Shown piece by piece: positions 3,770-11,801 of a stretch of 64,000 nucleotides of DNA. The translations under genes and the position numbers were made by a program. The notes under the pieces are model-generated. The model worked only from the letters and a program-made list of their open reading frames with translations, ran no database searches and was not told where the DNA came from. This DNA is from Tagaea sp. (GTDB taxonomy: Bacteria; Pseudomonadota; Alphaproteobacteria; CACIAM-22H2), in assembly GCA_044224405.1 (NCBI GenBank), contig JBGAKN010000003.1, positions 213,658 to 277,657 of the forward strand. The letters are read 5' to 3'. How positions within the stretch are numbered: position 1 is the first letter of the stretch; every line of letters begins with the position of its first letter.

Positions 3770-4420
3770 TCAATAGTCCTGCGACTCACGGGTGATCCGG
3801 CGGATTTCGCGCTGGACCATCCGCTCGACGAGATCGGGCAGGTACTGGTCGAGCCAAGCCTTCAGGATCGGGCGCAGTTCGGCACGCACGAGGTCCTCGA
3901 TCGTCAGGTCCGAGTTGCCGAGCAGCAGGTTGCGCGGAACACGCGCCTGAAGCCCCTGCAACGAATCCGACGCCTGCCGGGCCGTGTCGTCCGACATCAG
4001 GCGGCGTGGCTCCTCGGCCATGATCGGCGGCGGCTTGTCGACCACGTTGGTGAGCTCGAGCACGTCGTCCATCTCCGGCTCCGGCATGCGCGGACGCGGC
4101 GGAGGGGGCGGCGGAGGGGGCGGCGGAGGCGGAGGTGGTGGCGGAGGCGGCGGTGGCGCCTCCATCATCATTGGCTCAGGTTCCGGCTCGGGTTCCGGCT
4201 CCGGCATGGGGGGCGGAGGCGGCGGCGGAGCTGCAGCCGGCGGCGGCGGAGGGGGTGGCGGTGGTGGCGGAGGGGGTGGTGGCGGTGGCGGAGGTGCCGC
4301 CTCGGCGGCAGGAGCCGCCGGCGGCGCCTTACCGGCGTCTCCGTCTTCCGAAATAATGCGACGGATGGAGGCGAGGATCTCCTCCATCGACGGTTCTTGT
4401 TGGTTCTTTGGGTCCGTCAT
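3770..4420 (-). CDS. popZ: polar organizing protein PopZ (DUF2497)
   Basis: N-terminal EPSMEEILASIRRII helix, Pro/Glu-rich disordered middle, C-terminal LRPILKAWLDQYLPDLVERMVQREIRR; conserved position between tolC and valS. Confidence 0.93.
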   Translation of the reverse strand: MTDPKNQQEPSMEEILASIRRIISEDGDAGKAPPAAPAAEAAPPPPPPPPPPPPPPPPPPPAAAPPPPPPPMPEPEPEPEPEPMMMEAPPPPPPPPPPPPPPPPPPPPRPRMPEPEMDDVLELTNVVDKPPPIMAEEPRRLMSDDTARQASDSLQGLQARVPRNLLLGNSDLTIEDLVRAELRPILKAWLDQYLPDLVERMVQREIRRITRESQDY

Positions 4421-8954: not shown

Positions 8955-10496
8955 ATGAATCGAGATTCTCCTTACGATCTGCTCATCATCGGCGGCGGCG
9001 TGAACGGTTGCGGCATCGCGCGCGATGCCGCCGGGCGCGGCCTTTCCGTCCTCCTCGTCGAACAGAACGATCTTGCCTCGGCCACGTCGTCGGCATCGAC
9101 CAAACTGATCCATGGCGGCCTTCGCTATCTCGAACACTACGAATTCCGTCTCGTGCGCGAAGCGCTTTCCGAGCGCGATGTGCTGCTTGACGGCGCGCCG
9201 CACATCATGTGGCCGATGCGTTTCGTTCTGCCGCACGATTCCAGCCAGCGCCCGGCCTGGATGATCCGCATCGGCCTGTTCCTCTACGACCATCTGGGTT
9301 GGATTCCGGGACGAAAGTCGCGCCTGCCCGGCTCGCACAAGGTTGCCCTTTCCGGCAGCCCGTACGGTCGCGGCCTGCGCGACGACGTGCGGACCGGCTT
9401 CGTCTATTCCGACGGCTGGGTCGACGACGCGCGGCTGGTGGCGCTTGCCGCACGCCATGCGGCCGATCTGGGGGCGGATATCCGCGTGCGGACGCAGGCG
9501 ACCGAAGCGCGCCGCGAGAACGGGCTCTGGCATGCCACGCTGTCGGACCGCATCACCGGCCTGAAGACCGAAGTGCGCGCACGCGCGATCGTCAACGCGG
9601 CCGGTCCCTGGGTGATGCAGACGCTCTCGGGCGTGCTTGGTTCGAATGCGCCCGCGTCGATCAAGCTCGTCAAGGGCAGCCATATCGTCGTGCCGCGCCA
9701 GTACGAAGGCGACCATGCGTTCATTCTGCAGAACGACGACCGGCGCATCGTCTTCGTGATCCCCTATCAAGACCAGTTCACGCTGATCGGGACCACGGAG
9801 ATGGCCCACGAAGGCGATCCGTCGCGTGCCGCTATCACGCCGGCCGAGACCGAGTATCTGTGCAAGGCCGCGAACCGCTTCCTTGCAAAACCCATTTCGC
9901 CGGCCGACGCGGTGTGGAGCTATTCGGGCGTGCGCCCGCTCTATGACGACGGCGCCAGCAGCGCGACCGAGACGACACGTGACTACGTGCTGACTCTCGA
10001 CGGCGGAAACGGGACCGCGCCGGCCCTTTCGATCTTCGGCGGCAAGATCACGACCTTCCGCCGGCTCGCTGAGCACGCGCTGGAAAAGCTGATGCCGTTC
10101 TTCCCCGGCATGAAGCCGGCATGGACTGCCGGTGCGCGGCTGCCGGGCGGCGAACTCGACGGGATCGACGGCGATTTCGAGCGCTTCGTCGCGGCGCTTG
10201 TCGCGCGCTTCGCTTTCGTGCCGCCGGTGCATCTGCGCGCGATGGCGCGCCGGCAAGGAAGCCGGGTGTTCAAGTTCCTCGACGGCGTGACGAAGCTCGC
10301 CGATCTTGGCGTGCATTTCGGTGCCGGGCTTTACGCTGCCGAAGTCGACCTGATGGTCGGCGAGGAATGGGCCCGCACGTCCAGCGACATCCTGTTCCGC
10401 CGTTCGAAGCTCGGGCTTCATATCGGCCTTGCCGATCAGGCCGTGCTTGGCAGCTATCTGGCCGAGAAGCACGGATTGGGTCGGGTTCCGGCCTGA
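8955..10496 (+). CDS. glpD: FAD-dependent glycerol-3-phosphate dehydrogenase
   Basis: IIGGGVNGCGIARDAAGRG, TSSASTKLIHGGLRYLE, SGVRPL, FGGKITTFR. Confidence 0.95.
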   Translation: MNRDSPYDLLIIGGGVNGCGIARDAAGRGLSVLLVEQNDLASATSSASTKLIHGGLRYLEHYEFRLVREALSERDVLLDGAPHIMWPMRFVLPHDSSQRPAWMIRIGLFLYDHLGWIPGRKSRLPGSHKVALSGSPYGRGLRDDVRTGFVYSDGWVDDARLVALAARHAADLGADIRVRTQATEARRENGLWHATLSDRITGLKTEVRARAIVNAAGPWVMQTLSGVLGSNAPASIKLVKGSHIVVPRQYEGDHAFILQNDDRRIVFVIPYQDQFTLIGTTEMAHEGDPSRAAITPAETEYLCKAANRFLAKPISPADAVWSYSGVRPLYDDGASSATETTRDYVLTLDGGNGTAPALSIFGGKITTFRRLAEHALEKLMPFFPGMKPAWTAGARLPGGELDGIDGDFERFVAALVARFAFVPPVHLRAMARRQGSRVFKFLDGVTKLADLGVHFGAGLYAAEVDLMVGEEWARTSSDILFRRSKLGLHIGLADQAVLGSYLAEKHGLGRVPA

Positions 10497-10514
10497 AGTC
10501 GGGTTTCCGGAATC

Positions 10515-10542
10515 AAAAAGGCCGCGCCTGACTGGCGCGGCC
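10515..10542 (-). terminator. intrinsic terminator of the minus-strand small ORF
   Basis: Minus strand GGCCGCGCC-AGTCA-GGCGCGGCC-TTTTT; the U-tract faces the minus strand, not glpD. Confidence 0.75.
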
Positions 10543-10565
10543 CCGAACGGAATGTTCTGCTTCGC

Positions 10566-10709
10566 TCAGTGCTTGGTGTGCGGCAGAAGTCCGTCTTCAA
10601 CCAGGATCTTCTTGAGGCTCGCGAGAACTTCCGCGATGTCCGGCATGTCGGACTTCGCGGCGCTTCCCTTGCGGCGGCTCTGCTGGATCGAGGCGATCTT
10701 GCGGGGCAT
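10566..10709 (-). CDS. 47-aa small protein carrying a PopZ N-terminal-helix-like motif (not in ORF track)
   Basis: Manual translation MPRKIASIQQSRRKGSAAKSDMPDIAEVLASLKKILVEDGLLPHTKH*; GC-rich third positions, own terminator 23 nt downstream. Confidence 0.7.
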   Translation of the reverse strand: MPRKIASIQQSRRKGSAAKSDMPDIAEVLASLKKILVEDGLLPHTKH

Positions 10710-10812
10710 GTCTTTCACCGTTTCCGGAGGTTTCGTTGATGATCCGGTACATCAATATTGCATTCGGCTTTGCAAATTGCAAGATCATTTTTTCTAATGA
10801 TGAATTGGTCGC

Positions 10813-10868
10813 TTGACGCTCGTCCTACAGAAATATAGAACAAACCAAGAATTGTACGGATAGGGAAC
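10813..10868 (+). promoter_or_regulatory. SOS promoter with two alphaproteobacterial LexA boxes
   Basis: TTGACG-N17-TAGAAC; GAAC-N7-GAAT (10838-10852) and GTAC-N7-GAAC (10854-10868) resemble the alpha LexA direct repeat GAAC-N7-GAAC; upstream of imuA. Confidence 0.8.
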
Positions 10869-10883
10869 ACGAAGGAGCCGACA

Positions 10884-11801
10884 ATGTTTGAAGCGACTTT
10901 CTCCCCCACATTTTCCGAAAGCTTTTTTCCGGAACATATCGTGCACGAAAGCTTCGCCCGAATGCCGCGGCTTGGTCTCGCCACCTTGCCCAGCCGCAGC
11001 CAGTCGACCTTCGGGAAAATCCGCAATCCATTGATCAAGAATACGATGACCAGCCAATCCCACACGCTTCGCCGCCCCGCTTCGACGACCGTCCAGGAAC
11101 TGAAGGCGCGCTTGGCCGCCTTTGGAGATCGGGCACAGACCGGACGCGGGCCTCTCGCGCTCGGGATCGCAGCGATCGATGCAGCTCTGCCTTGGGCCGG
11201 TCTGCCGCGCGGCGCGCTGCACGAGATCGCGGGTGCTTCGAATGATGGCGCCGCCGCCGGCTTTGCCACCGCCCTGCTCGCCCGACTGGCTGGCGACGGG
11301 CCGGTGCTGTGGATCGCGCGCCGCCCGGATCTAAGTGCCGCCGGCCTTGCCGCTCTCGGCCTCGAACCTGCGCGCCTGCTGATCGTCAACGCGCCAAAGC
11401 GGGCTGACGCATTGTGGGCCTTCGAGGAAGCGCTGCGCAATCCGGCACTCGCCGGCGTCGTGGCCGAGATCGACGACGTCGATCTCACGCAATCGCGCCG
11501 CCTGCAGCTCGCGGCCGAGATGGGCGGGACGACGGCATTGCTGCTGCGCCCGCCCGGTGAACTCGAAACGGCGAGTGCCGCGCGCACGCGCTGGCGCGTG
11601 GCCGCGCTTCCGGCCGAGGCACCGGACGGCGAGAGCCGCCGCTGGCGCCTGACGCTCGCACGCGCGCAGGGCGGCAAGCCGGGCGAATGGCGCATCGATC
11701 ACCGCCGCGACGGATGGACGCTTTCCGATGAAGAACGACCGGCGCTTTCTGGCGATCTTCCTGCCGCATCTGCCGACCGACCGGTGCGCGCGGCAGGCTG
11801 A
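10884..11801 (+). CDS. imuA: ImuA (RecA-like SOS mutagenesis protein)
   Basis: GALHEIAG, ALWAFEEALR, SRRLQLAAE, SAARTRWRV; GAAGGAG RBS before 10884 (alternative start near 11046). Confidence 0.88.
   Translation: MFEATFSPTFSESFFPEHIVHESFARMPRLGLATLPSRSQSTFGKIRNPLIKNTMTSQSHTLRRPASTTVQELKARLAAFGDRAQTGRGPLALGIAAIDAALPWAGLPRGALHEIAGASNDGAAAGFATALLARLAGDGPVLWIARRPDLSAAGLAALGLEPARLLIVNAPKRADALWAFEEALRNPALAGVVAEIDDVDLTQSRRLQLAAEMGGTTALLLRPPGELETASAARTRWRVAALPAEAPDGESRRWRLTLARAQGGKPGEWRIDHRRDGWTLSDEERPALSGDLPAASADRPVRAAG

Follow-up and report, generated by a model that had tools for sequence, protein, structure and literature searches.

A conserved microprotein family encoded beside the imuABC cassette of Tagaea, with a single helix resembling the N-terminal helix of PopZ

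The window analysed here is a stretch of 64,000 nucleotides from the Tagaea sp. contig JBGAKN010000003.1 (assembly GCA_044224405.1, positions 213,658 to 277,657), and our subject is a small minus-strand gene located between glpD, which is convergent with it, and the divergent imuA-imuB-dnaE2 cassette. The original prediction had described this open reading frame (ORF) as an unannotated 47-residue protein mimicking H1, the client-binding N-terminal helix of PopZ, whose gene lies in the same window. The ORF was confirmed, with its ATG at 10709, a TGA stop at 10568-10566 and 47 codons encoding MPRKIASIQQSRRKGSAAKSDMPDIAEVLASLKKILVEDGLLPHTKH. A GTG was found in frame three codons 5' of this ATG, at 10718. 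Since the two codons between them differ freely among relatives and the ATG is invariant, the ATG was taken as the start and the preceding GGTGA as a weak Shine-Dalgarno sequence. The gene is indeed missing from the ORF track on which the prediction was based, but its orthologues have been deposited under the name 'hypothetical protein' in several NCBI metagenome-assembled genomes (MAGs). The features of the locus, and those used for comparison, are collected in Table 1.

Table 1 Coordinates of the small gene, its control signals and the sequences compared with it (window positions unless a locus is named).
Feature	Coordinates	Strand	Description and basis
47-aa microprotein coding sequence	10566..10709	minus	stop codon counted in; ORF list, homologues, codon statistics
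N-terminal tail, residues 1-22	10644..10709	minus	basic, net +5, predicted disordered; alignments A1 and A3
PopZ-H1-like segment PDIAEVLASLKKILVEDG, residues 23-40	10590..10643	minus	translation; contains the predicted amphipathic helix 25-38
C-terminal tail LLPHTKH	10569..10589	minus	alignment A3
Weak Shine-Dalgarno-like GGTGA	10715..10719	minus	5 nt 5' of the ATG; partly kept in orthologues as GTGA/GGA
Candidate promoter TTGCAA-N17-AATATT	10754..10782	minus	-35 at 10782..10777; -10 at 10759..10754
Palindrome TTGCA-N3-TGCAA, 13 bp	10770..10782		overlaps the -35 of the small gene; sole match in the window
Palindrome TTGATG-N8-CATCAA	10736..10755		this strain only (nine orthologous upstream regions aligned)
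Intrinsic terminator	10518..10544	minus	11-bp GC-rich stem, 5-nt loop, U-tract TTTTTGATT
Two tandem LexA-type direct-repeat boxes	10838..10868	minus	pattern search; conserved in all lineages examined
popZ	3770-4420	minus	216 aa; between valS and a TolC-like gene; DUF2497 at residues 140-211
PopZ H1 coding segment PSMEEILASIRRIISEDG	4340..4393	minus	translation; comparator for the microprotein
P0019, N-terminal TIR_2 plus four H1 repeats, 413 aa	L021 4001-5242		near-perfect H1 copies EPTMEEILASIRRIISEDD, about 58 residues apart

Judged from its conservation, this ORF is a real, strongly conserved small gene and founds an undescribed protein family. A search of 5.8 billion proteins gave 16 homologous clusters with 79-98% identity, and a profile search gave 15 further clusters with about 45-65% identity. 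Eight genomes of the species-representative collection carry the gene, all of them Tagaea or Rhodospirillales MAGs, and one more distant family member is labelled Telmatospirillum; OZ245864.1 is one Tagaea genome with the gene. The family is confined to one family-level clade of the Rhodospirillales, a group of freshwater alphaproteobacteria made up of Tagaea, Telmatospirillum and unnamed relatives; a tblastn search of 72,556 plasmids returned no homologue. Neither the protein nor the family profile found a meaningful match in Pfam, NCBIfam or the PDB sequences, and Pfam matched none of 22 family members. The JGI metagenome contig Ga0075163_10590920 (locus L022, 408-548) encodes a microprotein 100% identical to that of the window, which indicates that the same or a very close strain has been sampled elsewhere.

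In all, 26 orthologous loci were fetched; the metagenome scan brought in only five loci. The frame was intact in all 26, with 46-50 codons and a KH-stop end (KHS-stop in L009), and both the ATG and the stop were invariant across all lineages. Comparison of the window with eight Tagaea loci showed 12, 9 and 33 variable sites at the three codon positions in order, the corresponding numbers for codons 23-47 being 3, 1 and 17. The ratio of nonsynonymous to synonymous substitution (dN/dS, Nei-Gojobori) was 0.17 for the whole gene, 0.39 for residues 1-22 and 0.019 for residues 23-47, with a dS of about 0.6-0.7. Extreme purifying selection is, on these ratios, limited to the helix and the C-terminal tail. 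The same codon-level data contradict the view that there is no gene here, i.e. that the frame arose by chance in GC-rich DNA or that the conserved element is non-coding. That view may appeal to the shortness of the ORF, to the weak Shine-Dalgarno sequence and the promoter below the consensus threshold, and to the many spurious ORFs that high-GC DNA yields; set against the very low dN/dS of the C-terminal half at a dS of about 0.7, the preponderance of third-position changes, the invariant ATG and stop, and an Rfam scan of 10300-11000 that gave a single chance match (E 0.83), it is extremely improbable.

The product is modelled as a cytoplasmic microprotein of 47 amino acids in three parts: a basic disordered tail, a 14-residue amphipathic helix and an invariant GLLPxxKH end. 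AlphaFold2, with the family alignment A3 (22 sequences) as input, predicted one helix at residues 25-38 with a predicted local distance difference test score (pLDDT) of about 87-94, the remainder being unstructured; the N-terminal tail had a pLDDT of 56-62 and no secondary structure. Hydrophobic runs in the protein do not exceed five residues, and the amphipathic helix carries K33, K34, E38 and D39. The N-terminal tail is variable and mostly basic, with a net charge of +5 in Tagaea and of 0 to +4 in most other members, and it contains a conserved K4-I5-x-x-(L/I)8 motif, KI(A/V)x(L/I), which a variable linker of 12-15 residues separates from the helix. In A3 the core follows the consensus P-(D/E/Q)-(I/L)-x-x-(V/I)-L-A-(S/D)-L-K-K-I-L-x-E-D-G and the chain ends in (L/V)-L-P-x-x-K-H. 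The conservation expected of the helix segment was found at L29, A30, L32, K33, K34, I35, L36, E38, D39 and G40, which are invariant in A3, as are L42, P43, K46 and H47 of the end, but not at E27 and S31. With a single predicted helix in 47 residues, the protein amounts to one interaction element. Selection has fixed no more than this helix and a short tail of an otherwise disordered protein, a pattern that fits a fold-on-binding motif, and the helix and the C-terminal tail would most likely dock onto a partner protein.

The sequence signals around the small gene indicate that it is its own transcription unit, with a weak sigma-70-type promoter and an intrinsic terminator beyond the stop codon. 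The strong terminator facing the ORF had been noticed before; it was recovered by the terminator scan with a folding energy of -31.8 kcal/mol (z -3.2), and the pairing of its stem is kept via compensatory changes across other Tagaea loci. The proposed TTGCAA-N17-AATATT promoter is also present, and its -35, together with positions A2 and T6 of its -10, is kept in all nine Tagaea sequences, but it agrees with the consensus at 8/12 positions and, the threshold of the sigma-70 scan being 9/12, it was hence left uncalled. Sigma-54, CtrA-box and EcfG-type readings of the promoter, checked by eye, did not fit. Overlapping the -35 is the 13-bp palindrome TTGCA-N3-TGCAA, with half-sites conserved in 8/10 lineages (equivalent sites occur in L009, L014, L015 and L019) and a centre that varies between ATT, TTT and AAT. 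Because conserved half-sites around a variable centre are expected for an operator, we read this palindrome as the probable operator for a dedicated regulator. Fur/Mur and Irr boxes were considered for it, and the published ones do not fit, the Caulobacter Fur box being a 9-1-9 ATTGCGA-type element and the Irr iron control element (ICE) TTTAGAA-N3-TTCTAAA (PMC2724300, PMC1698941). Outside Tagaea, relatives have one more palindrome, CCGCAAA(A)TTTTGCGG, some 15 nt farther upstream. The other palindrome pointed out in the original prediction, TTGATG-N8-CATCAA, does exist but is not conserved, and is probably not functional.

The head-to-head arrangement with the LexA-boxed imuABC promoter, also part of the prediction, was seen in every locus. 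The two LexA-type boxes (ATTC-N7-GTTC at 10838-10852 and GTTC-N7-GTAC at 10854-10868) are located between the imuA -35 (TTGACG, 10813-10818) and the imuA ATG (10884), 55 bp upstream of the -35 of the small gene, and the pattern search found no LexA-type box within 10740-10800. As the boxes belong to the imuA promoter, there is no sequence ground for LexA control of the small gene. The suggested control by DNA damage is thus not indicated by the sequence, and the link of the small gene to the SOS response is one of adjacency only. For imuA-imuB-dnaE2 itself, the boxes give a clean SOS operator. The -35 elements of the two divergent promoters are 30 bp apart (10783-10812), and in Tagaea an A/T-rich stretch of this spacer, GATCATTTTTTCTAAT, is conserved and may serve as a shared UP element or as a regulator site.

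In all loci the gene order is the same, with dnaE2-imuB-imuA, the small gene divergent from imuA, and glpD convergent. This order persists down to identities of 58-69% for ImuA and 74-80% for GlpD with the window proteins, and beyond glpD the genes differ by lineage (an outer-membrane protein, ppk/ppx, or a phosphonate-binding protein with a two-component system). A functional link to ImuABC could account for so constant an order, and so could plain inheritance, the clade being fairly shallow.

Among alphaproteobacteria H1 hardly varies. In PopZ this N-terminal, client-binding helix is joined through a linker to an oligomerisation domain (PMC9512792), and in Caulobacter CpdR, RcdA and ChpT bind to PopZ at E7-E23 (PMC11519897). 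The PopZ of the window matches DUF2497 at 7.9e-23 and begins with MTDPKNQQEPSMEEILASIRRIISEDG; the H1 motif of the PopZ family reads EP(S/T)MEEILASIRRIISED. The ungapped alignment on which the original prediction was founded was reproduced by BLASTP: PDIAEVLASLKKILVEDG and PSMEEILASIRRIISEDG are identical at 9/18 and positive at 15/18 positions, with an expect value (E) of 3e-5 for that single comparison. The P, E, LAS, I and EDG residues are identical, the V/I, L/I, KK/RR and L/I exchanges are conservative, and the hydrophobic faces of the two helices are in register. Alignment by hhalign of the family with a profile of 26 PopZ N-termini covered 22 columns with a probability of 77% and a P of 2e-5. 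When the family profile was run against the 1037 six-frame ORFs of the window, PopZ was the top non-self match with 13 bits and E 0.0046, the next one having 4.1 bits; in the reverse search with a PopZ-H1 profile the small ORF was the top non-self match at E 0.011, followed at E 2.1. PopZ H1 is, in the available sequence, the reciprocal best non-self match of the microprotein. The 26 loci add a further 389k residues, where 4 bits were exceeded only by a piece of PopZ at the L007 boundary, with 8.6 bits, and by P0019, a protein in which H1 is repeated four times. Over the window and the 26 loci in six frames (507k residues), the family profile raised only H1-bearing ORFs above noise. P0019 was also the best non-family match among 1.84 billion representatives (E 1.6e-5), each of its repeats scoring 3-11 bits. 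The only other match, the HEAT-repeat protein P0020, has about 1 bit per repeat and was set aside as a repetition artefact, as it matches only the first half of the helix. A profile built from the non-Tagaea members alone still ranked PopZ first.

A number of observations weigh against reading this likeness as kinship or mimicry, and we consider it borderline significant as a sequence match. The E value is about 0.005 at the scale of the window and about 0.02 when scaled to a proteome of 4000 proteins, and no single-copy PopZ reached E ≤ 0.001 in the search of the 1.84 billion proteins. With the non-Tagaea profile PopZ had an E of 0.13 at window scale. Against the very narrow PopZ-H1 profile, the non-Tagaea members reached 2.3-3.7 bits, the Tagaea-type members mostly 11-12 bits, and P0021 only 6.5. 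The PopZ-like residues E27 and S31 are confined to Tagaea and are replaced by V/M and D elsewhere in A3, while the invariant M-E-E and S24 of PopZ are not conserved in the family. The features that the two helices share, i.e. a Pro/Asp N-cap, hydrophobic residues at the a/d/e positions of the heptad, a central basic pair and a Gly C-cap, are common in helices, and their flanks differ in charge, being basic in the microprotein and acidic in PopZ. Conversely, the invariant features of the family, GLLPxxKH and the N-terminal KI(A/V)x(L/I), have no counterpart in PopZ. A search with the PopZ N-terminus for further H1-only proteins turned up no intermediate sequences. We also rejected a recent duplication of the 5' end of popZ, the local DNA alignment scoring 19 against a shuffled mean of 17.5 ± 2.4, and the proximity of popZ within 6 kb is found only in Tagaea. 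In addition, the finding was selected for its likeness to PopZ, so that its apparent significance is inflated. Of the proposed likeness to H1, the in-register alignment and the reciprocal best match are supported; mimicry itself is weakened by the borderline E values, by the Tagaea-only E27 and S31 and by the invariant features of the family's own.

On balance, we favour a real microprotein family with its own transcription unit, whose helix and tail would dock onto a partner, as the best overall explanation. Since the helix is an in-register H1 look-alike, the likeliest single class of partner would be whatever H1 binds, i.e. the PopZ clients ParB, ChpT, CpdR and RcdA, or the oligomerisation domain of PopZ itself. 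That the likeness reflects shared binding surfaces, hence mimicry of H1, is a tentative suggestion, and it is with the same reserve that we propose the microprotein as a possible non-polymerising competitor for these surfaces; the alternatives in which the likeness is coincidental and the partner another one are together no less likely. The more specific proposal, in which a stand-alone, non-polymerising H1 look-alike competes for the surfaces on clients or on the oligomerisation domain and tunes the polar hub or condensate, is doubtful. Any binding or phenotype of the microprotein is what we infer from its sequence. The original prediction went further and proposed a decoy of clients, a free PopZ-H1 that could titrate ParB, ParA, ChpT and CpdR and free the centromere or delay cell-cycle progression, possibly when DNA damage induces it along with imuABC. 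It rightly noted that the H1-like helix occurs here without the part of PopZ that drives polar assembly, the microprotein having neither linker nor DUF2497, and the conserved position opposite the LexA-boxed imuA promoter would suit such a role. Yet the LexA-type boxes are on the imuA side at the distance given above and the promoter of the small gene carries a different conserved palindrome; moreover, the residue equivalent to the second glutamate of PopZ (Caulobacter E12 in our alignment) is hydrophobic in most members and the similarity is only borderline significant, which makes this reading quite improbable. A role directed at PopZ itself, in which the helix would bind the oligomerisation domain and the basic tail the acidic linker, and the microprotein would partition into, cap or soften the condensate, draws on the H1 likeness itself and on a 2026 study in which H1 contacts the oligomerisation domain of its own protein in the dilute phase and restrains condensation (PMC12999525). 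The net charge of +5 of the tail faces -15 for the window PopZ, of which -10 is in the linker, and a basic tail facing an acidic linker suits binding to PopZ slightly better than competition for clients. This role is nevertheless unlikely, as it carries the same statistical caveats as the H1 likeness and the charge of the tail drops to 0 to +4 in other lineages.

If the likeness to PopZ is coincidental, the microprotein could be an accessory or regulator of the ImuA-ImuB-DnaE2 mutasome that binds through its helix and tail. The order of these genes is invariant in all loci, whereas the genes beyond glpD change, the two -35 elements are just 30 bp apart, and the family has invariant features unrelated to PopZ. 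We nonetheless regard this role as rather unlikely: synteny ties the small gene to glpD just as much, in so shallow a clade it could persist without selection, a clamp-binding or RecA-like motif is absent from the microprotein, and we know of no ImuABC system with such a partner. Very unlikely is a small DNA-binding regulator, for example of a ribbon-helix-helix-like type, that would act through its basic N-terminus on the control region shared by imuA and the small gene. Such a protein might show the length of about 47 residues, the alternating KIASI motif in a basic N-terminus, and the combination of divergent promoters with a palindromic operator, but AlphaFold2 gives one helix preceded by a variable linker of 12-15 residues, and Pfam returned no match to any DNA-binding family. 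In ribbon-helix-helix proteins the N-terminal strand is followed directly by two helices, whereas the microprotein has one helix, split from its N-terminal motif by the variable linker.

Several known systems bear comparison with the microprotein. With PopZ H1 (Caulobacter residues about 7-23) the microprotein shares the 18-residue in-register alignment, the same amphipathic face and an isolated predicted helix. It differs from PopZ in that its helix is at residues 25-38 of 47 rather than at the extreme N-terminus, that the chain ends seven residues past the H1-like segment, and that it lacks the acidic proline-rich linker and the DUF2497 oligomerisation domain, both of them features of the PopZ family (Pfam DUF2497 / PF10691). 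DNA-level comparison and alignment gave no evidence of common descent of the microprotein and PopZ H1. Eukaryotic microProteins, e.g. Id and LITTLE ZIPPER, are single-motif proteins that interfere with larger relatives (PMC6003976). The microprotein is like them in being small, in having a single interaction element, and in resembling one module of a hub without the assembly domain of that hub. It is unlike them in that its host is a bacterium, its putative kinship to the larger protein amounts to a reciprocal best match with E 0.005-0.02, and interference is hypothetical here.

Small checkpoint inhibitors such as SidA and DidA of Caulobacter and Sda and MciZ of Bacillus have a few dozen residues and bind one target, SidA and DidA being membrane proteins under LexA or DriD control. 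They are similar in size to the microprotein, for which the original prediction had proposed a comparable damage-linked role. In contrast to SidA and DidA, the microprotein is predicted to be soluble and amphipathic, with no membrane-spanning segment and no LexA-type box at its promoter, and Pfam, NCBIfam and PDB searches revealed no sequence similarity to SidA, DidA, Sda or MciZ.

If the helix does engage the partners of PopZ, the microprotein would be the first natural regulator to act in trans through the recognition motif of the hub itself, a bacterial counterpart of the eukaryotic microProteins acting on a condensate scaffold, and it would offer a compact tool to probe the admission of clients to a bacterial condensate. 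Because H1 is so nearly invariant, Caulobacter offers a direct test of the idea, as does E. coli carrying reconstituted PopZ foci. In line with the original prediction, no paper connecting PopZ with a free-standing H1 microprotein came up in our literature search, which is only weak evidence of novelty. Should the likeness be coincidental, there would still be a well-supported family of small proteins, missed by size cut-offs, with a clear regulatory signature beside the imuABC cassette.

The search for stand-alone H1 proteins gave further short matches, and these were rejected since all of them look like truncated PopZ calls that run into the acidic/Pro-rich linker. Many of these short 'PopZ' calls, P0035, P0039, P0044 and P0090 among them, are on long contigs and end inside the linker; they probably reflect frameshifts in the Pro-rich repeat, or breaks in its assembly, and not stand-alone H1 proteins, and such calls are a trap when mining for H1-only proteins. 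The linker of the window PopZ is itself extreme, with 57% proline, two runs of about 20 consecutive prolines and the sequence PEPEPEPEPEP. P0019 resembles the microprotein in carrying the H1 motif outside PopZ, but its repeats are near-identical to true H1, it has an enzymatic or signalling domain, and it comes from a different organism and gene context. The repeats of P0019 show that H1 can be used as a portable module beyond PopZ, in this case by a TIR protein with a possible role in defence or signalling.

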